In this document: one piece after another, positions 28,032 through 52,650 of the stretch
Numbering within the stretch: the first letter of the stretch is position 1
How the letters are laid out: each line of letters opens with the position of its first letter
Origin: Candidatus Falkowbacteria bacterium
GTDB taxonomy: Bacteria > Patescibacteriota > Patescibacteriia > Patescibacteriales > WJLG01
NCBI GenBank assembly: GCA_963747695.1
Contig: CAVVFV010000008.1
Span: 203,592 to 267,591, forward strand
DNA: 64,000 nucleotides
Direction of reading: 5' to 3'
Translations under genes and position numbers: made by a program
The notes under the pieces: generated by a model
Database searches by the model: none
What the model was told of the DNA's origin: nothing
What the model saw: the letters and a program-made list of their open reading frames with translations, nothing else

Positions 28032-30722
28032 ATGGAAACCGCCTATCCCTTAAGTGAAAGAAAATTAGATAAGATTTTTAATCCGAAGACGATTGCCGTC
28101 ATCGGCGCTTCCGACCGCGAAGGCGGCGTGGGCAACGCGCTGATGAAGAATCTGATCGGCAATAATTTCGGCGGCATCGTTTATCCGGTTAATCCGGCGC
28201 GCGAGAGCGTGGCAGGCATCAAAGCTTACCCGAAAGTTTCCGACATTCCCGATAAAATCGATTTGGCGATCATCGCCACTCCGGCGCCTACCGTTACCGC
28301 CATCGTCGAGGAATGCGGCCAGGCCGGAGTTTCCGGAATAATTATTATTTCCTCGGGGTTTGACGAGATCGGCGCCAAGGGCCATAAGATGAGCGAGGAA
28401 ATTTTGTCGACCGCCCGCGAATATGGGATGCGCATCATCGGCCCGAACTGCCTGGGATTTATCCGGCCGTCGATTCATTTGAACGCCAGCTTTGCCAACA
28501 AGATGGCCTTGCCCGGTCATATCGCTTTCATTTCTCAGTCTGGCGCGCTCTGCACGGCCATTCTTGACTGGTCGTTGAAAAATAACGTCGGCTTTTCGCA
28601 ATTCGTTTCCATCGGTTCCAACATCGATATTTCTTTCCATGATCTGATTGATTATTTCGGCGACGATCCGGAAACGGACAGTATTTTGATTTATATGGAA
28701 TCGCTGACCGAGGCGCGGAAATTCATGTCAGCTGCCCGCGCTTTTTCCCGGAAAAAACCGATCGTGGTTTTGAAAGTCGGGCGCACCGAAGCCGGTTCCC
28801 AGGCGGCTAAGTCGCATACCGGCGCGATCACCGGCAACGATTCCGTTTATGACGCGGCTTTCGAGCGCGCGGGAATAATCCGCGTTGATGGCGCTTTGGA
28901 TTTGTTCCACGTGGCCAAGATGCTGGCGATGCAGCAACGTCCGGCGGATAACCGTGTCGCGGTCATTACCAATGCCGGCGGTCCGGGCGCGATTGCCGCC
29001 GACTGGCTGGCTATGAAAGGCGGACGCTTGGCCCAATTATCCCATACCACCGTGGCCGAGCTGAAAAAATTCTTGCCGGCTGCCGCTTCCACAGTCAATC
29101 CGGTGGATATTTTGGGTGATGCCGATCAGCATCGTTACCGGCAAGCGGTGGAATTATGTCTGGCTGATCCGAACGTTGACGCGGCTTTGGTTATTCTGAC
29201 GCCGCAGGAGATGACCAGCCCGACCGATGTCGCCCGACAGATCGTTTCGATAAAAAATAAAACCGGCAAAACTATGTTCGCTTCCTGGATGGGCGGCGAT
29301 GACGTTGCCGAAGGGCGGGTGATTTTGGAAAAAGGGCACATCCCGATTTACCGCACTCCGGAGGAAGCAGTGGATATTTTTATGTATGTTGACAGTTATC
29401 GCCGGCGTTTGGAATTCTTGAAGGAAACTCCGGGGTCGGTGCCTCATGCTTTTCAGCCGAAGACAGAAAAGAATCGTGAGCTGATTGAAAAAGTTATTGC
29501 CGATCATCGCACTGTGATGACCGAAGCCGAAGCCAAGGAAATGATCGCCAATTATGGAATTCCGGTCGCCAAGAACGGTACAGCCAATTCGGCTACTGAA
29601 GCCGGAGCAATCGCTTTCCAGATCGGCTTCCCGGTAGTGATGAAAATTCTCTCGCCGGATATTTTGCATAAAACCGATATCGGCGGCGTGAAGTTGAATA
29701 TCAGTTCGCGCTCCGAAGCGGAAGCGGCCTATCATGAAATTCTGGCCGGCGCGAAAAAAGGCGCACCGAAAGCTAAGATTGATGGCGTCTTTGTCGAGGC
29801 AATGACCAAAAAACGTTATGAGCTGCTGATCGGCTGCAAGAAGGATGAAATTTTCGGCCCGGCGATCGTCTTCGGCATGGGCGGCGTAGCCGTCGAAGTC
29901 TTCCGCGACACGGCGGTCGGCTTGCCGCCTTTGAATATGTCTCTGGCTTTGAAGATGATCCAGGAAACCAAAATTTATAAATTACTGGCAGGCTATCGGG
30001 GCATACCGGGCGTGGATATTGAAGCGATCCAATTCTTGCTTTATAAATTCGCTTATCTGGTCGCTGATTTTCCCGAGATCAAAGAATTGGATATCAATCC
30101 GTTCGCGGTCGATGAGAACGGCGGCGTGGTTTTGGACGCCAAAGTTATTTTGGATGAAAAAGTTTTGGGCGTCAAACATAAGCCCTACGCGCATTTGGTA
30201 ATTTCCCCTTATCCCAAAGAGCTGGAAAAAAATATTGTTTTGAAAAATAAGAAAAAAGTTTTGTTGCGCCCGATCCGTCCGGAAGATGAAAAATTAGAGC
30301 AGGAAATGATCGATAATTTTTCCGCTCGCACCATGCGTGATCGTTTTTTGGGGAGAGTGGCTAAGGTCAATTTGGAGATGCTGCGCGGCTTCACCCAGAT
30401 CGATTATGACCGTGAGATCGCCCTGGTCGGCGTGTTGACGGAGCGCGGCCGGGTGCGTTTTATCGGCGTGGTCAGATTGATCGCCGATCCTTACAATGAA
30501 TCGGCTAGCATGGCGATCGCTATTGCCGATCCCTGGCAAGCGCTTGGTTTAGGCGGCGAGATGGTCGATTATATTTTGGATATCGCCCGCGTCCGCGGCT
30601 TGAAAAAAGTCTGGGCCGAATTTTTTCCATCCAACGAGCGGATGAAAAAGATTTTGACTAAACGGAATTTTACCCTCAAGGAGCGCGGCAAGACGATGAT
30701 CGGGGAATTGGAACTTGGATAA
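28032..30722 (+). CDS. Pat-like protein: ADP-forming acetyl-CoA synthetase (alpha+beta) fused to a C-terminal GNAT acetyltransferase
   Basis: CoA-binding IAVIGASDREGGVG, phosphohistidine loop AAKSHTGAITG, ATP-grasp region, GNAT tail LRPIRPEDE...; 896 aa. Confidence 0.85.
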   Translation: METAYPLSERKLDKIFNPKTIAVIGASDREGGVGNALMKNLIGNNFGGIVYPVNPARESVAGIKAYPKVSDIPDKIDLAIIATPAPTVTAIVEECGQAGVSGIIIISSGFDEIGAKGHKMSEEILSTAREYGMRIIGPNCLGFIRPSIHLNASFANKMALPGHIAFISQSGALCTAILDWSLKNNVGFSQFVSIGSNIDISFHDLIDYFGDDPETDSILIYMESLTEARKFMSAARAFSRKKPIVVLKVGRTEAGSQAAKSHTGAITGNDSVYDAAFERAGIIRVDGALDLFHVAKMLAMQQRPADNRVAVITNAGGPGAIAADWLAMKGGRLAQLSHTTVAELKKFLPAAASTVNPVDILGDADQHRYRQAVELCLADPNVDAALVILTPQEMTSPTDVARQIVSIKNKTGKTMFASWMGGDDVAEGRVILEKGHIPIYRTPEEAVDIFMYVDSYRRRLEFLKETPGSVPHAFQPKTEKNRELIEKVIADHRTVMTEAEAKEMIANYGIPVAKNGTANSATEAGAIAFQIGFPVVMKILSPDILHKTDIGGVKLNISSRSEAEAAYHEILAGAKKGAPKAKIDGVFVEAMTKKRYELLIGCKKDEIFGPAIVFGMGGVAVEVFRDTAVGLPPLNMSLALKMIQETKIYKLLAGYRGIPGVDIEAIQFLLYKFAYLVADFPEIKELDINPFAVDENGGVVLDAKVILDEKVLGVKHKPYAHLVISPYPKELEKNIVLKNKKKVLLRPIRPEDEKLEQEMIDNFSARTMRDRFLGRVAKVNLEMLRGFTQIDYDREIALVGVLTERGRVRFIGVVRLIADPYNESASMAIAIADPWQALGLGGEMVDYILDIARVRGLKKVWAEFFPSNERMKKILTKRNFTLKERGKTMIGELELG

Positions 30723-31075
30723 AAAATTCCCCTCTTGGGAGGGGTGCCGAGCCCGGCGAATAGGTGCGGGTTTATTCCCGACATTATTTCAAATATCTTT
30801 GCCACTTTTTTTAAAAAAAGTGGCGCAAAAAATCGCGCGCTGGACAAATTTCCTATCACTCCGCTATCCCGCCAATGCGGGACTAGCAAAATTGCTATAC
30901 TTGTCCCGCTTTTATTAATAATATTATAATAAGGAGGCGGGACTTCGAACAACGCAATTTTGCACGGCTTCCCTGTCCCGCCAGCGGCGGTGATACGCTT
31001 CGTGATTACGGAAATTTTCCAATGCGCGCTACAAGGAAATTTATTATTTTGACAAATAAAAAAGCGCCGGAACTC
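30721..31075 (+). repeat. J-repeat copy B
   Basis: Starts in the stop codon of the Pat-like gene; collinear with 24424-24737, with one extra inner hairpin gtcccgc...gcgggac. Confidence 0.85.
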
Positions 31076-31271: not shown

Positions 31272-31348
31272 AAAACCTTCCAGAAGAATGTGAAAGTGCA
31301 AGATTTGATATATTAATATAATATCATATTTAACTAATTTTGTCAATA

Positions 31349-33001
31349 ATGTGGGAATCGATTAAGAAAAATAGGGAAATCGCGGTTTTTATCGCATTTT
31401 TAATCATCGGGTTGGCTGTTTACGCCAACTCTTTTGGCAACCAGTTTTTTTGGGATGATAATGACGAGATCGTTAATAATATTTACGTCCAGCATTTTGA
31501 TGTCAGCAAGATGTTTTCGCAGAGCATGATTTCCGGCGCCGGGCAAACCGATAATTATTACCGGCCGATCCTGCTTTTGTCGTACGCCGTGGATTATCAG
31601 CTTTGGGGAATGAATCCGTTCGGTTTCAATCTGATCGATGTGCTGCTGCACATCTTTAACGCGTGGCTGATTTTTATTTTATTATATTTCCTTTTGTCGT
31701 TGCGGCAAACCGCGTCCACTGAACCACCCTCCAACTCCTCCTTTGAGAGGAAGGGGGTTTGGCTGGCGTTTTTGCCGGCGCTGATTTTTTTGGTTCACCC
31801 GCTAAACACCGAAGCGGTCGATTATGTTTCCGGGCGAGCCGACGTCTTGTACGCTTTTTGGGCGCTTTTATCGCTTTTATTCTATTATTATTTTTTTCAA
31901 GCCAAAAACGTCAAGGGTAAGATCATCAACTATTCGGTCGCGGTGGTTTTTTTTATTTTTTCCCTGCTTACCAAAGAAACGGCTGTCGTGCTGCCGTTCC
32001 TGGCCGTGCTGATGGAGTTGGTTTTCCTGGCCAAGGGTGATTGGCGGACCAAAACGAAAACGGCCGCCAAAAATTCCTGGCCGTTTTTTTTGGTTTTAGC
32101 AGTTTATCTCCTGCTGCATTTGACGGTTTTTAATTTCAGCCATCTGGCCGGCGTTCCGATCGGTTGTCAGGGGGAATATTGCTCTTTCGGGATCGTTAAG
32201 CGGTTTTTGGTTTTCGGATCGGTGACCTTGAATTATTTTCAGATTTTATTCGTGCCGCTCGGTTTACATATGGAAAGGGCGGTGACGGAGTTCGGTTCGG
32301 TTTATTCCTGGAAAACTCTGGCGGCCTGGTTCGCCGTGCTGGTCTGGGCGGCGGTAGCGGTCATCTTTTGGAAAAAATCCCGGAGCATCGCCTTCGGATT
32401 ATTTTGGTTCTTCATCCTGCTGCTGCCGACTTCGGGAATCTTAGTCAGGATGAATTATCCGACCTACGAGCATTTTCTTTATCTGCCGATGATCGGATTT
32501 TGGCTGGCCCTCGGCGGCTTGATCTGCCTCGCCGCTGATAACCTTAAAAACGACCGGGTTTTACTCTTGGCGAAGATATTATTTTATGTTATGCTAAGCG
32601 CTTGTGTGGTTTTTTGGGGAATCCTGACGATCCGGCGCAACTTGATCTGGCATGATCCGATAACTTTCTACGAAAATAATTTAAAGTATTCGCCGCAGAG
32701 TTTTATCGAGCATACTAATCTGGGAATCGCTTACGATAATGCCGGACGACCAACCGAAGCGATAGCCCAATATCGCCAAGCGATTGGCATTGATGATGTT
32801 TATCCGCAAGTGCATTACGATCTGGCCAACGCTCTGGTGGGAGCGCAACAATACGACCAGGCGGAAAAGGAATATTTGCTCGCCATCGCCATGGATCCGG
32901 AATTTATTTTGCCTTACCGGAGTTTATATGATTTGTATAGTTATTTAGGGGAGAAGGATGAGGCAGGAGAAATTTTAAAAAAGATGCCCGGCAATAATTA
33001 A
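31349..33001 (+). CDS. GT-C-like membrane glycosyltransferase with C-terminal TPR repeats (TMTC/PMT_2-like)
   Basis: First loop FFWDDNDEI ... NYYRPILLLSY; about 11 TM spans; TPR tail YDNAGRPTEAIAQYRQAIGIDD...YDQAEKEYLLAIAMDP. Confidence 0.7.
   Translation: MWESIKKNREIAVFIAFLIIGLAVYANSFGNQFFWDDNDEIVNNIYVQHFDVSKMFSQSMISGAGQTDNYYRPILLLSYAVDYQLWGMNPFGFNLIDVLLHIFNAWLIFILLYFLLSLRQTASTEPPSNSSFERKGVWLAFLPALIFLVHPLNTEAVDYVSGRADVLYAFWALLSLLFYYYFFQAKNVKGKIINYSVAVVFFIFSLLTKETAVVLPFLAVLMELVFLAKGDWRTKTKTAAKNSWPFFLVLAVYLLLHLTVFNFSHLAGVPIGCQGEYCSFGIVKRFLVFGSVTLNYFQILFVPLGLHMERAVTEFGSVYSWKTLAAWFAVLVWAAVAVIFWKKSRSIAFGLFWFFILLLPTSGILVRMNYPTYEHFLYLPMIGFWLALGGLICLAADNLKNDRVLLLAKILFYVMLSACVVFWGILTIRRNLIWHDPITFYENNLKYSPQSFIEHTNLGIAYDNAGRPTEAIAQYRQAIGIDDVYPQVHYDLANALVGAQQYDQAEKEYLLAIAMDPEFILPYRSLYDLYSYLGEKDEAGEILKKMPGNN
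31722..31757 (+). repeat. diverged K-family element inside the TPR-glycosyltransferase
   Basis: aaccaccctccaactcctcctttgagaggaaggggg versus consensus aaccaccccNagNcccctccttNNaaaggagggg. Confidence 0.5.
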
Positions 33002-33093
33002 TTGCTATACTGTTATATTGCTATATTGTTAGGCAGCGAGAAAAATTTTTTTGCAAAATAACAATATGACAATATAGCAATATAACAATATGT
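33001..33093. repeat. A-family word palindrome
   Basis: attgctatactgttatattgctatattgtt ... aacaatatgacaatatagcaatataacaatatg; ends 4 nt before murJ ATG. Confidence 0.7.
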
Positions 33094-33097
33094 CAGC

Positions 33098-34771
33098 ATG
33101 ATTAAGAATTTTTTCAACAAACAGATTAATAGCATTACCGTGGCGGCGATCTTGGTCGCTTTGTCTTCGCTATTAAGCCGTTTGCTCGGAGTGTTTCGTG
33201 ATCATATTTTGGCGGGGCAGTTTGGCGCCGGTCCGACGCTCGATGCTTATTATGCCGCGTTCCGCGTTCCCGATCTGGTTTTCAATTTGCTGGTGCTCGG
33301 GGCGCTCTCGGCCGGTTTAATCCCGGTCTTTACCGGTTTGATCAAAGATTTTAAGGGTACGATGACCAACCTTTTCGGCTTGGAAAATACCGAGGCTTGG
33401 CGACTGATCAATAATATTCTGAATTTGATTCTAATCTCGATGGCCGTGCTTTCGGTGTTAGGAATAATTTTTGCCGACCCGATCATCAAAACGCTGATCG
33501 CTCCGGGATTCTCGCCGGCAATGCAGGCCAAGACCGCCGGCTTGAGTCGGATAATGTTCTTATCGCCGATCATCTTGGCCGTCTCCAGTATTTTCAGCGG
33601 CGTCTTGCAGACCTTCAAAAGATTTTTTATCTATTCGCTGGCGCCGATTATGTATAATGTCGGAATTATCTGCGGCGCCTTATTTTTAGTGCCGCTGTGG
33701 GGGATCTATGGTTTGGCCTGGGGCGTAGTTTTCGGCGCCTTGCTGCATATGTTCATCCAATTGCCGGCGGTTTTCACATTAGGTTACAAGTATCGCCCAT
33801 TCCTAAATCTGCGCGATGTCCATCTGCGGAAGATCCTGATGATGATGGTGCCGCGGACTTTGAGCCTGGCGGTTTCTCAATTGAATCTGGTGGTGATCAC
33901 TTTCATCGCTTCCGGGTTGGCTTCCGGCTCGCTGACGGTTTTCAATCTGGCCAATAATCTGCAATATTTTCCCATCGGCATTTTCGGCGTTTCTTTCGCC
34001 ATCGCCGCCTTTCCTTCGCTTTCTTCGGCCGCGGCTGATAATAAAAGATTGGTGCGGAATTTTTCTTGGACCATCAGGCAGATTTTATTTTTTATCGTGC
34101 CGTCGACTATTTTGCTTCTGGTCTTGCGGGCGCAGATCGTCCGCGTCATCCTCGGCTCCGGCCAATTCACTTGGCAGGACACGATGCTGACTTTCAACAC
34201 TTTGGGATTTTTCACCATCAGTCTTTTTGCTCAAGCGACCGCGCCTCTGCTGATCAGAGTCTTTTATGTCCGTGAAGATTCAACTACGCCATTCGTCATC
34301 GGAATAATTTCCGTGGCGGCGGAAAGGATAATCGCGCTCTATCTGGTGAACCGGATGGGCGTCGGCGGATTGGCCTTGGCTTTTTCGCTGGCCAATATTT
34401 TGAATTTTATACTCTTGTGGCTGATGCTCCATATTAAGCTGGGCGATCTGCTGGAAGGTAAGATCTTGGTTTCCGTCTTAAAATTTTCCGTGGCCGGATT
34501 GATCTGCGGTTTTATCGCCCAGGAAATGAAAGGTATCGTCTGGCCTTTTATCGATATGACTAGGTTCTTGGGTGTTTTAGTCCAAGGTTCGGCGGCCGGC
34601 CTTTGCGGTTTGCTTGTTTACGCCCTGTTCTGCTGGCTGCTTAGGAGCGAGGAAATGGCCAGCTTCATCTCCTCGGCCAAGAGCCGCCTTTTGCGGATTA
34701 TGGCGAAAAATCCGCCGGCCTTGCTCCAGTCGATCGACTCGATCGATGACGTGGATAAGAATAGTTTGTAA
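33098..34771 (+). CDS. murJ: lipid II flippase MurJ/MviN
   Basis: LLSRLLGVFRDHILAGQFGAGPTLDAYYAAFRVPDLVFNLLVLGALSAGLIP, 14-TM MOP architecture. Confidence 0.85.
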   Translation: MIKNFFNKQINSITVAAILVALSSLLSRLLGVFRDHILAGQFGAGPTLDAYYAAFRVPDLVFNLLVLGALSAGLIPVFTGLIKDFKGTMTNLFGLENTEAWRLINNILNLILISMAVLSVLGIIFADPIIKTLIAPGFSPAMQAKTAGLSRIMFLSPIILAVSSIFSGVLQTFKRFFIYSLAPIMYNVGIICGALFLVPLWGIYGLAWGVVFGALLHMFIQLPAVFTLGYKYRPFLNLRDVHLRKILMMMVPRTLSLAVSQLNLVVITFIASGLASGSLTVFNLANNLQYFPIGIFGVSFAIAAFPSLSSAAADNKRLVRNFSWTIRQILFFIVPSTILLLVLRAQIVRVILGSGQFTWQDTMLTFNTLGFFTISLFAQATAPLLIRVFYVREDSTTPFVIGIISVAAERIIALYLVNRMGVGGLALAFSLANILNFILLWLMLHIKLGDLLEGKILVSVLKFSVAGLICGFIAQEMKGIVWPFIDMTRFLGVLVQGSAAGLCGLLVYALFCWLLRSEEMASFISSAKSRLLRIMAKNPPALLQSIDSIDDVDKNSL

Positions 34772-34987: not shown

Positions 34988-36773
34988 ATGAAAAATATCA
35001 GAAACTTCTGTATTATCGCCCATATCGACCACGGCAAATCCACTTTTTCCGACCGGCTTTTAGAATTGACCGGTACGATCGAGAAGCGGAAAATGCGCGA
35101 ACAGTTTCTGGATAAATTGGATCTGGAGCGCGAGCGCGGCATCACCATCAAATTGAAACCCGTCACCATGCATTGGGAAGGGTATATTTTGAATCTTATT
35201 GACACGCCCGGGCACGTGGATTTTTCTTATGAAGTTTCCCGGTCGCTCGCGGCCGTCGAAGGTGCAATTCTCTTAATTGACGCCACGCAAGGGATCCAGG
35301 CCCAGACGCTCGCTAATTTATATCTCGCGATGAAAGAGGATCTGACCGTCATTCCGGTGATCAATAAGATCGATCTGCCGGCGGCCGATGTGCCGAAAGT
35401 GAAACAAGAAATAATCCATTTGATGGGCTGCAAGGATGAGGAGATTTTATTGGCTTCAGGAAAAACCGGCGAGGGCGTGGAAAAAGTTTTGCGGGAAGTG
35501 ATCGCCAAAGTTCCGGCCCCGGATCCGTCCCGCGAGGGGAATCCGACGCGGGCGCTGATTTTTGATTCCAATTACGACGAATATAAGGGCGTGGTGGCGC
35601 ATGTCCGGGTGATGGACGGCGCTTTCAAAAAAGGCGACAAGATAAAATTATATAACACTAAAACGGTCAGCGAAGTTTTGGACATTGGTATCTTTAATCC
35701 CGAATACCAACCGACCGGTGACTTGAGTACCGGCGAAGTCGGATATCTGGTTACCAGCTACAAAAATGTTACCGAGTGTGCGGTCGGCGATACGGTCACG
35801 ACCGTGGCGGACTTTGAGAAGATTGAACCGTTGAAAGGCTATGAAAAAGTCAACCCGATGGTTTTTGCCGGAGTTTTTCCTCGCGAGGGCGATGATTTTC
35901 AGGCACTGCGCGAAGCCATGGACCGCTTTAAGTTGAATGACGCCTCGCTTTCTTATGAACCGGAACATTCCGAAGCCTTGGGTTTTGGTTTTCGCTGCGG
36001 CTTCTTGGGATTATTGCATTTGGAAATTTTTCAGGAACGTCTTTCGAGAGAATTCAATCTGGACCTGATCGTTACCGTGCCGTCAGTAGCTTATAAAGTT
36101 TATAAACGGAATGGCGAGGAAGTGATCATCCGCACGCCGCAAAAATTGCCCAATCCGACCGAGATCGATCATGTTGAAGAGCCTTGGGTGGCCCTGGACG
36201 TGGTTGTGCCCAAAGAGTATATCGGCAAAGTTATGGAGTTGGCCGTGGATAAAAAAGGAATTTATAAAAATACCGAATATTTGGACGAGTCGAGAGTGAT
36301 TATGCATTATGATCTGCCGATGGCTTCGATCCTCACTGATTTTTATGATAAGATAAAAAGCGCCAGTTCCGGCTTTGCTTCGATCAATTACGATTTTTTG
36401 GATTATCGGCCGGCCAAAGTCGTCCGCCTGGATATCTTGGTAGCTGAAGAGCCGATTGAAGCATTATCGACGATCGTTTATGAAGATGATGCATTCCGTT
36501 CCGGACGCGCCGTAGTGGAAATTTTGAAAGATACTTTGTCGCGGCAGATGTTCGTCGTCAAATTGCAGGCGGCGGTGCAGGGGAAAGATCATCGCTTCGG
36601 AAAGATTGTCGGCTTTGCGCAAAGATGTTACCGCCAAATTATACGGCGGCGACGTTTCCCGCAAGCGCAAGCTTTTGGAAAAACAAAAAAAGGGCAAGAA
36701 GAAGATGATGGCCGCCGGGCGGGGATCGGTGGAGATACCACCGGAGACGTTCGTGAGGATATTAAAAAAATAA
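34988..36773 (+). CDS. lepA: elongation factor 4 (LepA); frame broken once near the 3' end as assembled
   Basis: G1 [10 protein letters not shown]3 DTPGHVDF. Conserved C-terminus [41 protein letters not shown]...[11 protein letters not shown] is in the +1 frame from the GGGG run 36580-36583 and stops at 36771-36773. The ORF-track tail to 36820 is out-of-frame read-through. Confidence 0.85.
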
Positions 36774-36780
36774 AAAAAAT

Positions 36781-36890
36781 AATCCGAACCCACAAAATAT
36801 CGCGAATACTACGAACATGATAACGAATTGATAAGTTCGGTTCGATAAAAGTTCGCAGTATTAGCGCATATAATTCGTAGTATTCGGATT
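36781..36890. repeat. B-family variant element
   Basis: aatccgaa...cgcgaatactacgaac ... ttcgtagtattcggatt. Confidence 0.6.
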
Positions 36891-37089: not shown

Positions 37090-38870
37090 ATGAATAAGAT
37101 CTGGCAAATCGCGCCCAAAATCCGCGAAGGATTTTTCAAGAAATTTCCCGAATACGACCGGGTGATTTTGCAATTGCTGCATAACCGCGGTTTAAGAGAG
37201 AGCGAGGAGATGGATCTTTTTTTGCACGGACATTTTGAAAATAATTTCAGTCCCTTCTTATTCAATAAGATGGAAGAGGCGATCAATCTGACTATCACTC
37301 ATATCAAAGCGGGTGATAAGATTTGCATTTATGGCGATTACGATGCTGACGGTATGACCGCTTCGGCTCTCTTGGCTGAGGTGTTGGCGACTTTGCGCGC
37401 TGACTGTTTCGTTTATATTCCTGACCGCGGTAGCGAAGGATATGGCTTGCATCGGGAGGCGATCGACAAGGCGATAAAAAAAGGAGCGAAGCTTTTAATA
37501 ACCGTCGACGGCGGCATCCGCAATAAGGGCGAAGTCGAATACGCCCGAGCTCGCGGGCTGGAAACAATCATCACCGATCATCATACCCCGCCGGAGTCTT
37601 CAGCCAATCTGCCCGATTGTCTTGATCGTCAATCCGCACCTCAAAGGAGAAAAATATCCTTTTAAGTTCTTGGCCGGAGTCGGCGTGGCTTTCAAATTTT
37701 CCCAGGCCTTGGTGGAGCGGTCGAAATTGAACGCCGAGCAGAAAAAGAAAATTTTGGAAAAAACTTTGGACTTGGTGGCGATCGGCACCGTGGCCGATTG
37801 CGTCACTTTACTGGGAGAAAACCGGCTGCTTTTAAAAAAAGGACTGGAAATTTTAAACGAGACTAAAAGAGTCGGTTTGAAAGAATTGATGAAGGCGGCC
37901 AAGATCGAGGGCAGGCAGCTGGAGGCTTGGAATATCGGTTTTCAGATCGCGCCCCGGCTTAACGCTTCGAGTCGGATGGGTTCGGCCGGCAATGCCTACA
38001 ATCTGCTTTCGACCAAGGATAAGAATGAGGCGGAAAAAGAAGCGCAATTGCTGAACGATCGCAATCTGCGGCGGCAGAAGGAAACGGAAGAGATCGTCGC
38101 CGAGGTGGAGTTGCAGATCAAAAAGCAGTTCGAAGAAAAAATTATCATCGGCATCTGTCCGGAAAAAGCCAAGCCGTGGAACGAAGGGATCGTCGGTCTG
38201 GTAGCCGGCCGGATTGCCGAAAAATATTATAAGCCGACTTTGATCATTACTAAATCGGAAAAAGGGTTCAAGGGTTCTGGCCGTTCGATCGAAGAATTCA
38301 ATCTATTCAAAGCAATCGAAGAAGCCGGAGATTTGCTGGGCAATCACGGCGGGCATCCGATGGCCGTCGGTTTCAATGCCAGCGAGGCTAACCTTCATCT
38401 TTTCGCCGAAAAGATCAGAAAAATCGCCAAACGAGATTTGGGTCACTTGCAGCTCGAGCCGAAATTGAAGATCGACTGTGAAATCATCCTCGAGGATGCC
38501 AGCCGCGACTTTTTATCGCGAAGTCCAGAGATTGGCGCCGTTCGGCCAGCATAATCCCGAACCGAAATTTTTGAGTGAAAATATCCAGATTAAGGATATG
38601 ATGAAAATGGGGGCGAACGGCCAGCATATTAAATTCCGTTTTGGCCTGCCGATGGCTGCGGGCAGGCGGTCTGGGGGGATCGGCTTTAATCATGCCGAGG
38701 AATGGGCGGATTTCAAGATCGGTGATTTGGTCGACGCGGTTTATACTTTGGACGAGAATGAATTCAACGGCAATACCAGCCTGCAATTCAAATTGATCGA
38801 TCTGAAATTGCACGGCAGCGAGTTGATCAAGAAAGGACATTGGTCGGCGGAGACGGTATATATAGATTGA
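37090..38870 (+). CDS. recJ: single-stranded-DNA-specific exonuclease RecJ; two frame breaks as assembled
   Basis: DHH motifs IYGDYDADGMTAS, ITVDGG, ITDHHTP; DHHA1 GGHPMAVG. Track pieces 37090-37665, 37622-38554 and 38478-38870 join into ~590 aa if one nt is skipped at ~37621 and one T of T5 38510-38514. Confidence 0.85.
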
Positions 38871-38965
38871 AATATCCAATAATAAATAACCAATATTAAA
38901 AAAATATTAAAATATTTTAATATTAAAATATTTTTTGGATATTTTTTATTTGATATTTATTTGTT
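38871..38965. repeat. word palindrome, sister of 13737-13831
   Basis: aaatatccaataataaataaccaatattaaa ... ttggatattttttatttgatatttatttg. Confidence 0.65.
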
Positions 38966-39387
38966 ATGATTCAAAAAAAACAAAAACTTATTATTTATAC
39001 TGATGGCGGCGCGCGGGGAAATCCGGGTCCGGCGGCGATTGGCGCGGTTTTAAAGGACGAGAAAGGGGAGCTAGTCGCGGAAATTTCCGAGTATATCGGC
39101 GAGACCACTAATAATCAAGCCGAATATCGGGCGGTGGTTGCGGCCATGGAAAAAGCTAAGAAACTTGGCGCCGAGGAATTGCAATTTTTTTTGGACAGCG
39201 AATTAGTGGTTAAGCAGCTTAACCGCGAATACAAAGTCCGCGATAAAGAACTGGCGCCGTTTTTCATGAAAATATATAATGCCGCGATGGGATTTAAGAA
39301 AGTAACCTTCAAACATATTCGCCGGGAACTTAATGCGGAAGCGGAAGGTTGGTGAATGAAGCGCTGGATAATAAAAAAGTTAATTAG
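38966..39387 (+). CDS. rnhA: ribonuclease HI; 1-nt gap near the 3' end as assembled
   Basis: IYTDGGARGNPGPAAIG, TNNQAEYRA, DSELVV. Conserved EADRLVNEAL tail is readable only after a 1-nt deletion at ~39345, and then stops at TAG 39385-39387. Confidence 0.8.
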
Positions 39388-39531
39388 TCGATTGGTTAAT
39401 TAGTTAATTGGTTGTAAAATATTCAATTTCTCAATATAAAAAAACCGTCAGCCTGTATTGTGCCGATGGTTTTTTATATTGATAAATTATTAACTCTTAA
39501 ACTAATTAACCAATCGACTAGTCAACCAATC
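39379..39531. repeat. word palindrome (taattag words) enclosing a bidirectional terminator
   Basis: Arms gttaattagtcgattggttaattagttaattggttg / aactaattaaccaatcgactagtcaaccaatc; central hairpin aaaaaaaccgtcagc...gccgatggttttt (39438-39476). Confidence 0.65.
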
Positions 39532-40450
39532 ATATTTTTCGATATTCTTGTCCGCCAAGCTCTTGGATATATTCGATTTCTTTTTTCCCCTCCTCGCCTT
39601 TGAACAGATGCTTGAAGCGGGCCTGGATTTTCAGATATTCTTCGACTTTGATCGGAGTTTGAATTTTAGAAACGTTAACGAGCTGGCCGTCGACATATTC
39701 CAGAAGGGGATAAAGGCCGGTTTGCACTGCCAATTTTGCGACTTGCATCGCGTCGGAAGTTTTGATGCCAAAGCCGGGAATGCAGGGTGACATTATCTGG
39801 ATATATCCCGGTCCCTGGGTTTCAATGCCTTTTCTGACTTTGGCGGTAATATCCAAAGGGTAGCCGGCGGTGGATTGGGCGATATATTTTACGCCGTGCG
39901 CTAAGGCGATGGCGAGCATATCTTTTTTGCGTTGGGTTGAACCGATCGAGGCCGAACCGGCCGGAGTCGTCGTAGTGGAAGCGCCGGGCGGCGTGGCGCC
40001 GGAAGCCTGAACGCCGGTATTGGAATAAACTTCCGTATCGTAGCAAATATATAAAATATTTTCGCCCCTTTCCCACATCCCCGAAATCAAGCCAAAGCCG
40101 ATATCAAAAGTCGAGCCGTCGCCTCCCTGGACGATGACCTTGGTATTCCGTAGGTCCGCAATACTTTGCGGACCAGTCGGTTTGCCCGCAAGGTATTGCG
40201 GGCCTACGGATTTTATTTTGAAATTCAAAGCGGCTCGGATGCCGCTCGCGACCGCGGCGGGATTTTCGAACAAAGAATGGATCCAGGGAATTTTCCAGGC
40301 CGATTCCGGGTAAGGAGTGGTGGTCACTTCCAAACAGCCGGTGGCGTTGGCGATAATCACATCCGGGCCCATCGCCCGGGAAGCGGCTATGGCCGCGATC
40401 ATCTGCCCGCAGCCGGCGCAGGCGCGGTGGCCCGGAGCGATTAAGCACAT
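39530..40450 (-). CDS. porB: pyruvate/2-oxoacid:ferredoxin oxidoreductase, beta (TPP-binding) subunit
   Basis: APGHRACAGCG, QGGDGSTFDIGF, CYDTEVYSNTG; the start may lie further upstream (see findings). Confidence 0.85.
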   Translation of the reverse strand: MCLIAPGHRACAGCGQMIAAIAASRAMGPDVIIANATGCLEVTTTPYPESAWKIPWIHSLFENPAAVASGIRAALNFKIKSVGPQYLAGKPTGPQSIADLRNTKVIVQGGDGSTFDIGFGLISGMWERGENILYICYDTEVYSNTGVQASGATPPGASTTTTPAGSASIGSTQRKKDMLAIALAHGVKYIAQSTAGYPLDITAKVRKGIETQGPGYIQIMSPCIPGFGIKTSDAMQVAKLAVQTGLYPLLEYVDGQLVNVSKIQTPIKVEEYLKIQARFKHLFKGEEGKKEIEYIQELGGQEYRKI

Positions 40451-41901: not shown

Positions 41902-41910
41902 AAAATTTAT

Positions 41911-42019
41911 ATTGTTATATTGTTGAGTTACAAAAAATTATTTCATTGAAATAAATTTTTTACTAAAAAGCTTAAAATCGTTGCGTAGCAATATAACAAT
42001 ATAGCAATATGACAATATT
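41911..42019. repeat. A-family word palindrome (left arm truncated)
   Basis: attgttatattgtt ... cgttgcgtagcaatataacaatatagcaatatgacaatat. Confidence 0.65.
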
Positions 42020-43228
42020 CTATTTTCCAATAAATTCAACTTCTTTTCCTTTTCTCACAGCTTTATTTATAATAGCTTTAATCATCCCCCGCGTGACGTC
42101 CCGTCCGCCCAGGCCGATGATGAAATTTTTGACTACGGCGTTGATTTTTCCCTGCACTGCCGCTTTAACCTCGATATATAGCGGGCCGGCATAGCCTAAA
42201 GAAACGGCTTTTTCCGCGACTAAAATATTTTTGGCGCCGACTTTTTTTAAGACATTAATGATCGCTTGCTCGGGAAATGGCCGGAAAGTCCGCAACTTCA
42301 AAACGCCGATGCTGCCGCTGGAACCGAAGATGCCGCCGGCCGATCTTTTTTCATCGATCACTTCCTTAATCGTACCGACCACCGAACCCATGGCAACGAT
42401 CACGGTTTTTGCGCGCTCTGAACCGTAATACTCGATTAATCCATTATCAAATTTCAAATTTCTAATTTCCAATTTCGAACTGGTTATCGGAATAGTTTTA
42501 TTATATTTTTCATATTCGGATTTTATTACCTCTAAAGATAAGACGAGATCATCGTGCAGTTCTTGGCGGATTTCCAGATAATCAACCGGAGTAGCGAAAG
42601 CGCCGAACGTCCGCGGATTGGCCGGATCCAGATATGTTCCCGTCTTGGGCTTATAGTCGGGTAAGAATTTTTTGATATCTTTTTCCGAAGGAATACTCAC
42701 TTCTTCGTAAGAATGGGTTAAGACAAAACCGTCGACATTGACCATTACTGGCAAATGTAATTTTTCCGCAATTTTGTAAGCCAAAATATGCTGGGTGACG
42801 GCTTCCTGATGATTTTCGGCAAACAATAAGATCCAGCCGGCATCGCGGATGGTCATCACGTCTTGCGCGTCGTTCCAGATGTTGATTGGCGCGGACACGG
42901 CGCGGTTAGCGCAGGTGATCACGACCGGCAAGCGCATTCCGGCGATGTTGAAGATCACCTCGGTCATCAAAAGCAAGCCTTGCGAACTGGTGGCTGAATA
43001 GGCGCGGACGCCGGTCGCGGCAGCGCCCAAGATTATGGAAGCGGCGGCAAATTCGCTCTCGGCCCGGACATATTCGTAATCAGCCTCGCCGTCAGCTTTG
43101 AAGCGCGCCAAATCTTCCATGATGTGCGTCTGCGGCGTAATCGGATAAGCGGAGACGACCGCGGGCTTGATATTTTTTATGGTTAAGGCAATTGCTCGCG
43201 AGCCTTCGAGGATTTGAGGTTTATTCAT
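42020..43228 (-). CDS. porA: pyruvate/2-oxoacid:ferredoxin oxidoreductase, alpha subunit
   Basis: GSRAIALTIKNIKPAVVSAYPITPQT, RAESEFAAASIILGAAATGVRAYSATSSQGL. Confidence 0.9.
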   Translation of the reverse strand: MNKPQILEGSRAIALTIKNIKPAVVSAYPITPQTHIMEDLARFKADGEADYEYVRAESEFAAASIILGAAATGVRAYSATSSQGLLLMTEVIFNIAGMRLPVVITCANRAVSAPINIWNDAQDVMTIRDAGWILLFAENHQEAVTQHILAYKIAEKLHLPVMVNVDGFVLTHSYEEVSIPSEKDIKKFLPDYKPKTGTYLDPANPRTFGAFATPVDYLEIRQELHDDLVLSLEVIKSEYEKYNKTIPITSSKLEIRNLKFDNGLIEYYGSERAKTVIVAMGSVVGTIKEVIDEKRSAGGIFGSSGSIGVLKLRTFRPFPEQAIINVLKKVGAKNILVAEKAVSLGYAGPLYIEVKAAVQGKINAVVKNFIIGLGGRDVTRGMIKAIINKAVRKGKEVEFIGK

Positions 43229-43328
43229 ATATTGCTATATTGTCATATTGTTATATTGTAGCGCTACGTTTTTACAACTTTTCTACATTTTCTCGTTGCG
43301 TAGCAATATAACAATATAGCAATATGAC
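43229..43328. repeat. A-family word palindrome (intercistronic porD-porA)
   Basis: atattgctatattgtcatattgttatattgtagcgc ... cgttgcgtagcaatataacaatatagcaatatgac. Confidence 0.75.
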
Positions 43329-43330
43329 AT

Positions 43331-43597
43331 TTACTTCTTTTCCAGTTCCATCTTAATCACCTTGACCGGGCACTCGGAGGCGCAGACGCCGCAGCCTTTA
43401 CAGAAATCGTAATCGGTTTGCGGCTTGGGTTTGCTTTCCGGCTGATCAACCATCTTGATGCAGTTTTCCGGACAGACGCGGGCGCAGGTGGCGCAGGAAA
43501 TACAATGCTCCAGATCGGTCTTCGGGCGGAAAGTGCGCCAACCGCCCGTATGGTTGGTAATGGTTGAACCTGGTTGAACAGTAATATCGATAGACAT
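43331..43597 (-). CDS. porD: pyruvate:ferredoxin oxidoreductase delta subunit (2x[4Fe-4S] ferredoxin)
   Basis: CISCATCARVCP and CKGCGVCASECP cluster motifs; 88 aa. Confidence 0.85.
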   Translation of the reverse strand: MSIDITVQPGSTITNHTGGWRTFRPKTDLEHCISCATCARVCPENCIKMVDQPESKPKPQTDYDFCKGCGVCASECPVKVIKMELEKK

Positions 43598-44260: not shown

Positions 44261-44360
44261 ATATTGTCAGATTGCTATATTGTTATATTGTTGTGAGACG
44301 CAAATTAACGGTTAATTTTTTTTCGTTGCGCGACAATATAACAATATGTCAATATAGCAA
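44261..44360. repeat. A-family word palindrome
   Basis: atattgtcagattgctatattgttatattgttg ... cgttgcgcgacaatataacaatatgtcaatatagcaat. Confidence 0.75.
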
Positions 44361-44369
44361 TTCGATTGG

Positions 44370-44993
44370 TTATTTCAAAAACTGCTGAATTATCTGTTCG
44401 AATTTATCTTCCGGGATCTCTCCCTCGATCTTGTAACCGTTGATGAAGAAAGTCGGCGTCCCGATCACTCCCAGGGACTGGCCGTCAGCATAATCGGCCC
44501 TGATGGCGTTCAAATATTTTTGGCTGGTGAAACAATTGGTAAAAACAGTTCGATTGGCGCCGACGGAAACCGCCAGGTCGGGCAGAGAAGATGTCTCAAA
44601 CTGCCCTTGCAGCGCGAACAATTTGTCATGCATCGCCCAAAATAGTCCCTGTTCGCCGGCGCATCTCGCGGCCAGCGCCAGATCAAGCGAATTGTCATGC
44701 AAAGGGAAATCCTTAAAGATAAGCTTAACTGAATTTTTATATTTAACGCTGATTTCTCTGACGGCGGTATAGTCCTCCTGACAGTAGGGGCAGGCGAAAT
44801 CGGAAAATTCAACGACAGTGACTTTGGGCGTGCTGGTGCCGAAAGAATAATCGGCCGGGCGGTCGGTCACGACGAATTTTGGCGTTGATTGGACCGGACG
44901 ATGCGGGGTGGCGAAATGCGCCACCAGCGCTCCGACCAGAATTATTGCCGCGAAAACGATGACCGTGATGGTTTTTTTGTTCATTTTATTCAT
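44370..44993 (-). CDS. membrane-anchored DsbA-family thiol:disulfide oxidoreductase
   Basis: N-terminal TM; thioredoxin-fold active site FACPYC; GTPTFFING. Confidence 0.8.
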   Translation of the reverse strand: MNKMNKKTITVIVFAAIILVGALVAHFATPHRPVQSTPKFVVTDRPADYSFGTSTPKVTVVEFSDFACPYCQEDYTAVREISVKYKNSVKLIFKDFPLHDNSLDLALAARCAGEQGLFWAMHDKLFALQGQFETSSLPDLAVSVGANRTVFTNCFTSQKYLNAIRADYADGQSLGVIGTPTFFINGYKIEGEIPEDKFEQIIQQFLK

Positions 44994-45206
44994 TGCGGGC
45001 GCTTGGAAAATAAACTATAATATAATTGCTTTTATTATACCATATTATATCTGTATGGCGATAGCTAATCATGATTATTTAGAAGTCCAAGCTTTAAAGA
45101 AAGCCGCCCTGCGCGAGAAGAAGAAAAAGCCGAAGATGAAAGTCAGTGGCGCAAGTGTTAAACATTTACAACGGTTAATTAACGGTAAGTGATTTTTATA
45201 ATTAAA

Positions 45207-45276
45207 ATTGTTATATTGCTAAATTGTCATATTGTTGTGATCTGACTTAGCAATATAACAATATGGCAATATAACA
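45207..45276. repeat. A-family word palindrome
   Basis: attgttatattgctaaattgtcatattgttg ... ttagcaatataacaatatggcaatataacaATG (abuts xth start). Confidence 0.7.
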
Positions 45277-46095
45277 ATGAAATTAATATCTTGGAACGTC
45301 AACGGCATCAGGGCCGCGGTTAAAAAAGGCTTTGTCGATTTTTTGCAAAACGAAAGGCCGGATATCTTGTGTTTGCAGGAAATCAAGATTTCCGATTCAG
45401 CTAAGCGCGAAGAAGTTTTTGATTTTGCCGGTTACCAGGAATTTTGGCATTCGGCCGTCAAGCCGGGGTATGCCGGGACGATGACCTTAGTTAGGGATAA
45501 TTTAATCAGTGAAACGGCCGTAACACACCCCGTCTCGCGAGGCGCGAGCCACCCCTCTCGAGAGGGGAATAAATTTATCGGGCTCGTGGAATTTCCCGAT
45601 GATCCGGAAGGCCGGGTGCAGATTTTGGAATTCGAGAAATTTTATTTGTGCAACATCTATTTTGTCAACGCCCAGCGCGGTTTGACCAGGCTGAAACATA
45701 AAATGGAATGGGAGGATCGCCTGTTGAAGTTCTTGAAAAAATTGGATAAGAAAAAATCGCTGGTCATTTGCGGCGATTATAATGTCGCTCACGAGGAAAT
45801 CGATATCGCCCGTCCCAAAGAGAATAAAAAAAATGCCGGTTTCACCCCGGAGGAGCGGGCCTGGATGACTAAATTTCTTAAAGCCGGTTTCGTCGACGTC
45901 TTCCGTAACCAGCATCCGGACAAGATCCAATATAGTTGGTGGACTTTTTATGCCAATGCCCGGGCCCGCAACATCGGCTGGCGCATTGACTATTTTTGCG
46001 TTTCAGCGTATCTTGTTAAGTCAGTCAAAAGTTCTTTTATAATGGATCAAGTCCAGGGATCGGACCATTGTCCGGTCGGCGTCATTTTAAAATAA
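45277..46095 (+). CDS. xth: exodeoxyribonuclease III with a 17-codon repeat-element insertion
   Basis: SWNVNGIRA, LCLQEIK, EGRV, CGDYNVAH, WRIDYF, GSDHCPV. Confidence 0.9.
   Translation: MKLISWNVNGIRAAVKKGFVDFLQNERPDILCLQEIKISDSAKREEVFDFAGYQEFWHSAVKPGYAGTMTLVRDNLISETAVTHPVSRGASHPSREGNKFIGLVEFPDDPEGRVQILEFEKFYLCNIYFVNAQRGLTRLKHKMEWEDRLLKFLKKLDKKKSLVICGDYNVAHEEIDIARPKENKKNAGFTPEERAWMTKFLKAGFVDVFRNQHPDKIQYSWWTFYANARARNIGWRIDYFCVSAYLVKSVKSSFIMDQVQGSDHCPVGVILK
45520..45570 (+). repeat. K'-type GC-rich element inserted in frame in xth
   Basis: gtaacacaccccgtctcgcgaggcgcgagccacccctctcgagaggggaat; nearly the reverse complement of intergenic 24430-24481. Confidence 0.85.
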
Positions 46096-46958: not shown

Positions 46959-49811
<2,853 letters not shown>

Positions 49812-51659: not shown

Positions 51660-52508
51660 ATGGATTTATTGGAAAGGACAAAGGAGATTTGTAAACTTTA
51701 TGATATCTGGCCTTCGCGCTCCAAGGGACAGAATTTTTTAGTTTCCGAAAGCGTCTATGATAAAATCGTCGCCGCAGCCGGTTTAACCAAGGATGATACG
51801 GTTTTGGAAGTCGGCCCGGGTTTGGGATTCCTGACCGCCGAATTGGCAAAGGCTGCCAAGCAAGTGATCGCTGTCGAGCTTGACGATAAACTCGCTGCTT
51901 ATTTAAAAGATGCTTTACAAGCCAATGAGGTTGATAATGTCGAGGTGGTTAACGAAAATATTTTGGATTTAGATTTTAAAAATATACGAAATACGAAATA
52001 CGAAATACGAAATACTAATTTTAAGATCGTTGCCAACCTTCCTTATAATATAACCTCGGTTTTTCTTAGAAAATTTCTCTCCAATGAGCCGCGTCCGGAA
52101 TCGATGGTTTTGCTGCTGCAGAAAGAAGTGGCCGAGCGCATTTGCGCCCAGCCCGGCGATATGTCTTTGTTGGCTCTGTCGGTGCAATTTTATGCTGAGC
52201 CGGAAATCATCGATTTTGTGCCGAATCATGATTTTTGGCCGGCGCCGAAAGTGGACTCAGCTATCATTAAGATAAAAGTTAAGAGAGAAGAGAGAAGAGA
52301 TGCTGACGAGAAGGATTTCTTCCGTTTGGCGAAGTTCGGGTTTTCGGCACGGCGCAAGATGCTCAAGAATAATCTGGCCGGCGGCTTGCATATCAAGCCA
52401 GCCGAGGCGGAAGCGATCTTGGTCAAAGCCGGTTTTAATCCCAAGATCAGGGCGGAAGATTTAGGGGTCGGGGATTGGGAAAGGATTATCAAATTGTTAT
52501 ATTGTTAA
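51660..52508 (+). CDS. rsmA: 16S rRNA (adenine1518/1519-N6)-dimethyltransferase
   Basis: SKGQNFL, VLEVGPGLGFLT (SAM motif I), ANLPYNITS. Confidence 0.9.
   Translation: MDLLERTKEICKLYDIWPSRSKGQNFLVSESVYDKIVAAAGLTKDDTVLEVGPGLGFLTAELAKAAKQVIAVELDDKLAAYLKDALQANEVDNVEVVNENILDLDFKNIRNTKYEIRNTNFKIVANLPYNITSVFLRKFLSNEPRPESMVLLLQKEVAERICAQPGDMSLLALSVQFYAEPEIIDFVPNHDFWPAPKVDSAIIKIKVKREERRDADEKDFFRLAKFGFSARRKMLKNNLAGGLHIKPAEAEAILVKAGFNPKIRAEDLGVGDWERIIKLLYC
51984..52015 (+). repeat. tandem heptanucleotide repeat (atacgaa x4.6) inside rsmA
   Basis: atacgaaatacgaaatacgaaatacgaaatac read directly; encodes IRNTKYEIRNT. Confidence 0.9.
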
Positions 52509-52580
52509 ATTGCTATATTGTTGCGCAACGAGATATTTTTTTCGTAGCACAACAATATAACAATATAGCAGTATAGCAAT
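52493..52580. repeat. A-family word palindrome overlapping the rsmA 3' end
   Basis: attgttatattgttaaattgctatattgttgcgcaacg ... cgtagcacaacaatataacaatatagcagtatagcaat; the last rsmA codons (LLYC-stop) lie in the left arm. Confidence 0.7.
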
Positions 52581-52650
52581 AAGATGATTATTGTTTTTTT
52601 TCGCCTAAATATGTTATAATTATGGACAAAGAAGATAAGCGGACTTTCGC

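Follow-up and report, generated by a model that had tools for sequence, protein, structure and literature searches.

A probable dispersed palindromic DNA element carried in frame by the exonuclease III gene of a Candidatus Falkowbacteria bacterium

A palindromic element in xth and its copies in the window

Here, we examine a stretch of 64,000 nucleotides from a Candidatus Falkowbacteria bacterium (the window, by which we mean the whole stretch) and a 51-nt GC-rich segment that lies in frame in its exodeoxyribonuclease III gene, xth. This segment is probably a member of a dispersed family of palindromic, non-autonomous DNA elements, of the kind represented by repetitive extragenic palindromes (REPs) and the Rickettsia palindromic elements (RPEs). 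The kind of element is known; the family and its host phylum are new. Mobility of the element is suggested by its distribution. The genomes of Patescibacteria (candidate phyla radiation, CPR) are very small and considered streamlined, yet selfish DNA persists in them, and at least three housekeeping genes in the 64-kb window (xth, leuS and comEC) hold in-frame hairpin repeats.

The xth copy (copy 1; 45520-45570, + strand) is in frame, in the sense orientation, and reads GTAACACACCCCGTCTCGCGAGGCGCGAGCCACCCCTCTCGAGAGGGGAAT. It comprises a 5' box (ACACACCCCGTC, 45523-45534), a first hairpin (stem 45534-45539/45543-45548, loop AGG) followed by CCA (45549-45551), and a second hairpin in which CCCCTC (45552-45557) faces GAGGGG (45562-45567) across the loop TCGA, with a tail of AAT (45568-45570). 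A covariance model matched this copy at 45521-45571 (+) with 79 bits (E = 7e-20), its DNA fold consists of the two hairpins (-12.1 kcal/mol, z = -2.85), and it is free of stop codons in all six frames.

An earlier note, made from the letters of the window, had pointed out that 45520-45570 is almost the reverse complement of 24430-24481. Both sequences are as quoted there, and self-BLAST aligned 24429-24481 with 45570-45520 at 90.6% identity over 53 columns, the differences being two 1-nt indels flanking hairpin 1 and a few substitutions. This twin (copy 2; 24428-24481, - strand) is intergenic and takes a 53-nt form in which hairpin 1 is flanked on either side by one additional base and hairpin 2 contains one mismatch; the covariance model matched it at 24428-24480 (-) with 55 bits (E = 2e-13). 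Its GGGGAAT end stands 7 nt past the stop of the open reading frame (ORF) 23442-24425, and it is antisense to both neighbouring genes. The 15-mer GTAACACACCCCGTC occurs exactly twice in the window, compared with 0.03 occurrences expected from shuffles. A third, decayed copy (30725-30773, -; 22 bits, E = 2e-4) lies directly past the stop of ORF 28032-30722 and retains hairpin 2 and an AATT tail, its 5' box and hairpin 1 being degenerate. For all window copies, DNA folding of either strand yields two short hairpins. A scan of the window for tRNA and tmRNA genes found none.

Copies 2 and 3 occupy equivalent places, a few bases past a stop codon and each at the 5' end of a copy of the J-repeat. 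The earlier note's placement of the twin at the 5' end of J-repeat copy A holds, and copy 3 stands at the same end of copy B. The J-repeat itself is a spacer segment of ~250-290 nt present twice (24497-24737 and 30789-31075; 24506-24737 and 30798-31075 in a slightly narrower delimitation), the two being 82-89% identical. Each carries an AT-rich perfect palindrome, GCTAC-T7-A7-GTAGC, which is called terminator-like on the - strand, together with GC hairpins. Downstream of one lies an acetyl-CoA synthetase gene (24796-26733) and downstream of the other a gene for a tetratricopeptide repeat (TPR) protein (31340-33001).

The insert in exonuclease III and its exchange between lineages

The host gene, xth (45277-46095, +), is an intact ORF of 272 aa in the ExoA-APE1 family. 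Its product has thousands of PF03372 homologues (E down to 1e-137), the nearest in Patescibacteria, and we confirmed the PF03372 fold with its conserved catalytic residues, every invariant catalytic column being retained. An AlphaFold2 model (predicted local distance difference test, pLDDT, 91.9) matches Helicobacter pylori XthA, Bacillus subtilis ExoA, Mth212 and APE1. Members of this family have a base length of 250 aa. The nearest orthologues (P0002 and P0004) have that length, are 82-83% identical to the window protein outside the insert and lack the extra segment, which is also missing from every solved ExoIII/APE1 structure, among them H. pylori XthA (8igi), B. subtilis ExoA (5cfe), Mth212 and APE1, in line with the earlier note's statement that ExoIII/ExoA proteins normally have no such segment.

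Codon alignment with the genes of these orthologues (locus L011 for P0004, L012 for P0002) delimits the extra segment as I77-N98, ISETAVTHPVSRGASHPSREGN, which is 22 codons long (45505-45570, +) and consists of a 5-codon variable leader and the 17-codon element (V82-N98, VTHPVSRGASHPSREGN). The count of 17 added codons given earlier is thus correct for the element, which is in frame, and too low for the segment gained relative to the 250-aa proteins; the 17-residue peptide quoted with it was off by one codon. As had been anticipated, the segment is modelled as a low-confidence loop between two strands (67-73 and 100-104), with a mean pLDDT of 53 for residues 81-90 and 67 for residues 91-100. 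The inserted codons would be read as a disordered surface loop. By alignment, the insertion site falls near Leu140/Lys141 of human APE1, which we take to be the distal end of a beta-hairpin whose proximal ends bear the DNA contacts Tyr128 and Arg156. By homology with APE1, the Xth loop would lie at the end of the sheet that faces away from the DNA-binding face.

Three further Xth orthologues (P0003, P0005 and P0006; 71-74% protein identity) bear the insert at the same place, and the element DNA in their genes is 88-98% identical to that of the window. Where the orthologues share an amino acid within the element, 13-16 of 14-16 codons are identical, compared with ~62% in the remaining xth (Fisher p 5e-4 to 0.04). 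In the xth gene that encodes P0005 (L001), a second, variant copy is nested within the first. Among syntenic orthologues, the window, L001, L002 and L003 have a filled xth site, and L011 and L012 an empty one. The earlier note had reasoned that its proposal would fail if the 17 residues were conserved in relatives lacking the nucleotide repeat elsewhere; the residues are indeed conserved in P0003, P0005 and P0006, but the genomes of the two with flanking DNA (L001/P0005 and L002/P0006) carry further copies. More broadly, 12 of the 116 nearest orthologues have at least 22 additional residues at the same site, with peptides that differ; these expanded loops mostly end in ..RRGD, ..KEGG or ..EGN (a GAGGGG-type arm) just before (K/L)F(V/I)G. 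One such gene (L133) has a related variant at the same loop, AACCACCCC...CCCCTCC-TTGAT-AGGAGGGG, and a degenerate relative of the element at a second site.

The window gene is a mosaic with respect to this insert. We considered 54 informative sites at which the L011/L012-type sequences agree and differ from the three insert-bearing sequences. The window xth agrees with the insert-less sequences at 4/4 sites up to 45472, with the insert-bearing ones at 13/13 sites between 45567 and 45622, and again with the insert-less ones at 32/37 sites from 45649 on, so that the outer bounds of the insert-type tract are 45473-45648 (+), at most 176 nt. Over most of the gene, nucleotide identity to L011/L012 is 0.8-0.9; sliding identity over codons 71-112 is 0.93 to L002 (0.95 at third positions) vs 0.58-0.63 to L011/L012. 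An insert-bearing tract of this size, with a history unlike that of the rest of xth, argues that the insert was exchanged between lineages by homologous recombination. On this sequence evidence, the xth copy most likely reached the window genome, or was retained there, via a short recombination tract and not by in-situ transposition. The simplest reading is that an insert-less-type xth gained the insert, although the direction is not fixed by the data. The mosaic allele shows that such inserts are able to pass between lineages via short homologous-recombination tracts.

Copies in other genes and genomes

A scan of GTDB, using one genome per species and a pattern specific to the window's sub-family (hairpin TCGCG-NGG-CGCGA), returned four real sub-family copies in two genomes. 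Two are in frame, in a MurD-type ligase gene (murD; ..MTYTPRPRAARVHPSQEGNI.., L005) and in uvrC (..GRNTPRLARREPPLSRGEF.., L006), and two are in intergenic spacers (L007 and L008); two matches in Rhodococcus were set aside as chance. Three of the four (L005, L006 and L008) come from one metagenome-assembled genome (MAG), whose own Xth (P0004) has no insert. The covariance model identified antisense copies in the leuS genes of L001 and L002 (..NSPLERG..GCV..) and a sense copy in porA of L001. Altogether, the 51-53-nt sequence is read within five housekeeping genes, in antisense and in no fewer than three sense frames, and it also occurs outside genes, which extends to related genomes the earlier observation that the sequence exists in both coding and non-coding contexts.

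In leuS, at least four hairpin inserts are present in some and absent from others of four syntenic genomes. Site 2 is a clean 51-nt insertion in L002, between ATA and ACN. In the window, leuS carries in frame, at site 6, a short-form element, AACCACCCCTAGCCCCTCCTTGGAAAGGAGGGGAAT (49435-49469, +), which is a 30-nt insertion relative to L011/L002 and gives a weak covariance-model match at 49413-49472. The same short hairpin form, AACCACCCCCAGACCCCTCC-loop-GGAGGGG, occurs in comEC as an inverted pair (15451-15484 and 16278-16311, 94% complementary), both members lying within the reading frame of ORF 15094-16620 (ComEC: PF03772 and DUF4131); the leuS element is a third copy of this form.

The MAG that holds three of the GTDB copies (GCA_035506055.1, DATJQC01; L005, L006, L008 and L011) goes under the label 'Candidatus Nanoarchaeia archaeon'. 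Patescibacteria contigs are syntenic with its xth-leuS region, at 77-83% protein identity, and its murD and uvrC are bacterial; the label looks like a misclassification.

Architecture and placement of the wider family

A metagenome scan with the pattern ACACACCCCGTC-N(12-22)-CCACCCCTC, which partly imposes the constant boxes of the resulting set, recovered at least 120 stretches, compared with ~5 expected by chance (a rough estimate). Among the 138 copies extracted, a hairpin fills the gap in every case; 96 different hairpin sequences occur, averaging 6.3 pairs, and the mean folding energy is -8.0 kcal/mol vs -4.2 kcal/mol after shuffling. GAGGGG completes the second box without exception and precedes A (135/138), A/T, T and T, the arms of hairpin 2 being CCACCCCTC-loop-GAGGGGAAT; just 5' of the first box there is a preference for T and A. 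The consensus unit of ~51-55 nt is (TA)ACACACCCCGTC, a short, perfectly paired hairpin of free sequence, and (G/T)CCACCCCTC-loop-GAGGGGA(A/T)TT.

The covariance model gave 174 matches in 672 kb of loci. In hairpin 1, double changes affect all six pairs (6/6), paired cells make up 91%, each of the four Watson-Crick types is represented and G-U is found in 3 of ~800 cells. Its covariation score is 0.342, vs 0.069 in shuffles (0/500 reach the observed value) and at most 0.030 in slid controls; because the alignment was fitted to the model these counts lean toward structure, although the hairpins are evident in the raw sequences too. Hairpin 2 (CCCCTC/GAGGGG) is essentially invariant. The near-absence of G-U from the variable hairpin indicates that pairing is kept on both strands, as expected of a DNA palindrome rather than an RNA helix. 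The sequence of hairpin 1 is usually common to the copies in one contig and differs between contigs, a pattern of amplification within lineages.

About 40 of the 138 copies lie inside long ORFs, 24 in sense and 16 in antisense (18 and 7 by a stricter count). Intergenic copies show an orientation bias: past their GGGGAAT end lies an opposite-strand gene in 57 cases and a same-strand gene in 27, and the stop codon of that gene is often 3-20 nt away, as in the window twin (7 nt). Elements form arrays at some other loci, and no dimers occur in the window. BLAST of a consensus copy found no match among PLSDB plasmids or INPHARED phages and matched only two IMG/VR contigs, which argues that this is not a phage or plasmid element.

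Three other ideas about the sequence were dropped. Freedom from stops in six frames is not a property of the family, being found in 16 of 113 distinct cores vs 4% of random 47-mers; with so few stop-free cores, it is a filter on the copies that survive in genes and not a design feature. Removal of the insert in the manner of a bulge-helix-bulge or intron is unsupported, since genic copies are always in frame, stop-free in the frame used and present in both orientations. A resemblance of GTAACACACCCCGTC to the 16S rRNA 1390-1405 region was put down to coincidence, since the motif accompanies the hairpins in many unrelated settings.

A DUF559 gene adjoining the elements

We clustered all 843 ORFs of the collected loci and found that the sole family recurrently adjoining the elements is a small protein of 120-140 aa, assigned by Pfam to DUF559 (PF04480, E = 2e-31). 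In a non-overlapping ORF set, an element stands no more than 100 nt from 6/6 DUF559 ORFs, compared with 110/708 other ORFs (Fisher p = 1.6e-5). Searches by tblastn brought the number of DUF559 loci to eight in all, usually with elements on both sides. Homologues at 65-75% identity occur in Poribacteria, Parcubacteria, Bacteroidota, Nitrospirota and Kryptoniota. In many homologues, from several phyla, the C-terminus runs into a sense-read element (..WI.EHTPS...HPSQEGN), and many have N-terminal extensions that are related elements read antisense. A Parcubacteria MAG (L136) illustrates the arrangement: its DUF559 gene (4229-4663) follows an antisense copy at a distance of 23 nt, its last codons contain a sense copy, and an additional copy directly follows the preceding recJ.

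DUF559 belongs to the Vsr branch of PD-(D/E)XK nucleases, which includes a group I intron homing endonuclease (PMC3424549). By analogy with systems that pair REP doublets (REPINs) with REP-associated tyrosine transposases (RAYTs), we tentatively raise the possibility, which we regard as rather doubtful, that the elements and the Vsr-fold DUF559 genes they bracket form an undescribed repeat-enzyme partnership built on a nicking or homing-type nuclease. Such a nuclease would recognise the invariant boxes and the hairpin and drive copying of the element by repair synthesis. If true, this partnership would account for the lack of target duplications, the strictness of the Watson-Crick palindrome, the spread across phyla (Parcubacteria, Poribacteria, Bacteroidota, Nitrospirota and Kryptoniota) and the colonisation of coding sequences in Patescibacteria.

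Competing explanations

Several observations weigh against regarding the xth insert as a dispersed element. Target-site duplications were sought around 130 copies and none was convincing, the best flanking match being a 2-mer (25 vs 12.4 expected). Terminal inverted repeats are absent, in that the ends TAACAC... and ...GGGGAATT are not inverted repeats of one another. No transposase-like or RAYT-type neighbour recurred in the 843-ORF clustering, no dedicated RAYT profile search having been made. DUF559 was not found in the 64-kb window or in ~90 kb of DNA from its closest relatives, so for this genome the link to the nuclease is a lead and not a finding. The only documented movement is homologous recombination of a host gene segment, no excision or transposition event having been observed, and copy number in the window lineage is low (three per 64 kb by the covariance model). 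The constancy of the boxes in the metagenome set is partly fixed by the search pattern, and the intergenic orientation bias (57 vs 27) could reflect a role at the RNA level. That the insert is translated, and that its loop lies at a distance from the active site, is likewise inferred. Finally, the 3' arm overlays host codons at two sites: in xth, the empty GGC ATC AAA corresponds to the filled GGG AAT AAA, and at leuS site 6 the empty GAA GAG CGG GGG ATC corresponds to the filled GAA AGG AGG GGA ATT. Simple insertion does not predict such an overlay, which may fit a preference for sites resembling the element end, or partial local templating. As for the earlier note's description of the sequence as mobile, the distribution speaks for it, and no mobilising enzyme or target-site duplication was found.

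We consider it unlikely that the element is a functional RNA, i.e., a 3'-end stabiliser, attenuator or terminator whose xth copy is accidental or regulatory (for instance by pausing the ribosome or RNA polymerase). The placement of the copies is what such a role would lead one to expect, as the intergenic GGGGAAT end preferentially faces the stop codon of an opposite-strand gene, window copies 2 and 3 both follow stop codons, hairpin 2 in the sense orientation is often followed by A(A/T)TT(T), and REPs are reported at the same places, where they are thought to act as RNA (PMC3733652). However, G-U pairs are nearly absent from the hypervariable stem, genic copies occur in both orientations, and the commonest intergenic orientation has no U-run after the hairpins. 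Rfam 15 gave no window match at the gathering score and, across 15 loci, no match to the elements at E <= 1, and a terminator scan did not call the twin. A more remote prospect is that the hairpins are made locally, by template-switch or fold-back replication errors at GGGGAAT-like sites, and are then homogenised by gene conversion, so that the palindromes would be convergent. The overlays in xth and leuS site 6, the empty alleles of which already approach the 3' arm, are in keeping with this, as are the lack of target-site duplications and the perfect pairing free of G-T intermediates, which would be expected if one arm were copied from the other. Local templating nevertheless fails to account for a 12-nt 5' box and a hairpin 1 that are identical or nearly so at unrelated loci and in different genomes; leuS site 2 is a clean insertion into a target unlike the element, and the sharing of hairpin-1 sequence by copies of one contig fits amplification from a master copy. 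We regard this mechanism as improbable.

Least probable, to the point that we give it very little weight, is a lineage-specific protein loop kept for a role of its peptide in Xth, with the similarity to the spacer being secondary. The conservation of THPVSRGASHPS(R/Q)EGN in four Xth orthologues and the expansion of the loop in 12/116 of the nearest orthologues could be taken that way. Against this, the same DNA gives unrelated peptides in murD and uvrC (other frames) and in leuS (antisense), synonymous sites are as strongly conserved as non-synonymous ones, model confidence in the loop is low, it is missing from the nearest relatives, and unrelated hairpin-derived peptides occupy the same spot in other orthologues.

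A dispersed palindromic element is thus the reading that we favour, and it can be put as follows. Established by the data are the repeated occurrence of the sequence and its layout, the constraint on pairing, the coding copies that lie in frame in several genes, in different frames and orientations, the polymorphism of presence and absence, and the mosaic tract. The sub-family TCGCG-NGG-CGCGA would have spread through a small Patescibacteria clade, its copies persisting where they are least harmful, namely directly downstream of stop codons and in frame in protein surface loops. The xth copy would be transcribed and translated, giving 17 residues within a 22-residue disordered loop that joins two beta-strands; the insert peptide would be a passenger, and what is conserved would be the nucleotide sequence and the DNA palindrome. 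Primary dispersal would be enzymatic, the sole candidate seen being the DUF559 Vsr-fold endonuclease gene flanked by elements, and might proceed by nicking at elements followed by repair or copying, as opposed to cut-and-paste transposition.

Other repeats and anomalies

Further features were noted in the genes discussed above. At the N-terminus of leuS (47027-47068), a 24-nt GC-rich insert is present in the window and L001 and not in L002 or L011. The window leuS (46959-49811) consists of two same-frame ORFs (46959-47759 and 47877-49811) split by an in-frame TAG (47757-47759). Relative to L011/L002, there is a local double frameshift at 47730-47775 that puts ~11 codons of the conserved TTRPDT motif out of frame (..TFSVALM*CSRRRHP..); the split could be an assembly error, a pseudogene or recoding. 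LeuRS also has an inserted domain of ~150 residues (window ~48070-48520; L001 11574-14582; L002 3386-6367), annotated as NUDIX in precomputed Pfam assignments for L001 and L002. The insertion site of this domain is common to the window and L001 and different in L002, and L011 has a shorter, unrelated insert. In lepA (EF4/LepA, ORF 34988-36820), a GC-rich island (35510-35555, ..CCGTCCCGCGAGGGGAATCC..) ends in a GAGGGGAAT-like motif and may be another decayed element. In L133, the relative with the variant xth loop, a small 23S_rRNA_IVP gene (PF05635, 7631-7990) lies within the pyruvate:ferredoxin oxidoreductase gene cluster; L001, L010 and the window have this cluster without the gene, which is another small gene of variable presence and is possibly selfish.

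AT-rich intergenic arrays with 8-nt periodicity occur at 6751-6855, 33000-33102, 41910-42029, 43222-43344, 44262-44374, 45206-45291 and 52492-52593. In them, a short GC hairpin (..GCGCAACG..) separates units of ATTGTTAT or ATTGCTAT from their reverse complement, AACAATAT. The array at 45206-45291 directly precedes xth and runs over its start codon at 45277. Further 8-nt periodic families are found at 5487-5591 / 39375-39539 and at 13742-13830 / 38870-38966.

Comparison with known systems

Our full-text literature search found no paper that describes this element sequence or such an element in Patescibacteria. Among known systems, Coxiella QMITEs and enterobacterial RU elements are small non-autonomous repeats, both intergenic and intragenic (PMC5896051, PMC2759123). 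The element described here resembles transposable elements of the miniature inverted-repeat type (MITEs) in being a small non-autonomous repeat that adds peptides to host proteins. MITEs, however, are defined by terminal inverted repeats and target-site duplications, and as it has neither, the element is not a MITE.

A closer parallel is provided by the RPEs, reportedly described by Ogata et al. in 2000. In both cases, palindromic repeats lie between genes and in frame inside intact housekeeping genes of a small-genome bacterium, at tolerated positions, and the hosts include repair genes (uvrB, uvrC and dnaE in Rickettsia; xth and uvrC here) and tRNA synthetases. This likeness is functional, and the phylum is a different one; membership in RPE-1 to RPE-8 is unlikely by phylum and size. 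RPE-1 is 100-150 bp long, whereas the unit here is 51-55 nt, and the present family has two hairpins, one hypervariable and one invariant. We know of no association of RPEs with a DUF559 gene. RPE-4 and RPE-6 have been equated with CGTC REPs (PMC3733652), a group that merits comparison in its own right.

CGTC REPs are mostly located directly downstream of ORFs, with some intragenic copies and no dedicated transposase known (PMC3733652, Di Nocera et al. 2013), and intragenic copies of GTAG/CGTC REPs are notably common in uvrA, uvrB, uvrC, uvrD, recBCD and tRNA synthetase genes (PMC3733652). They are single palindromic units of 20-40 bp, at high copy number and with HH dimers predominant, and have an 8-9-bp stem with A/T pairs in the first two positions, a 4-5-nt loop and frequent G-T pairs (PMC3733652). 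An unpaired CGTC 5' of the hairpin has its counterpart in the window copies, where CCCGTC directly precedes hairpin 1 (GCC in L002), and hairpin 1 is followed in each of the three window-lineage forms by CCA (51-nt form) or TCCA (53-nt form); in the metagenome copies the CGTC and CCA motifs are wholly or partly imposed by the search pattern. The window stem, in contrast, is 6 bp long (family mean 6.3 bp) and all G-C except for a T-A second pair in copy 1, with a 3-nt loop and no G-T in the window copies. The unit is longer than that of a CGTC REP, sparser and, in the window, not dimeric, and it has an extra conserved 5' ACACACC and a second, invariant hairpin. Failing the stem, loop, G-T and dimer characters of CGTC REPs, the element is not a demonstrated member of a described family.

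In REPIN-RAYT systems, REP doublets are associated with a domesticated IS200/IS605-type tyrosine transposase. The arrangement seen around DUF559 recalls these systems in that a single-copy enzyme gene is flanked by inverted copies of a dispersed repeat, with no target-site duplications, and that a hairpin with a short conserved 5' motif resembles a recognition unit. The two differ in the flanked gene, which here encodes a DUF559 / Vsr-fold PD-(D/E)XK endonuclease and not an HUH Y1 transposase. Inserts of this type enlarge and diversify protein loops, confound orthologue alignments and yield spurious 'PSQEGN / SPLERG' peptides in metagenome protein catalogues. The combination of invariant boxes, a free but paired hairpin and linkage to DUF559 provides a handle on how REP-like repeats without a transposase spread, and the linkage also provides one on the role of the very common DUF559 proteins.

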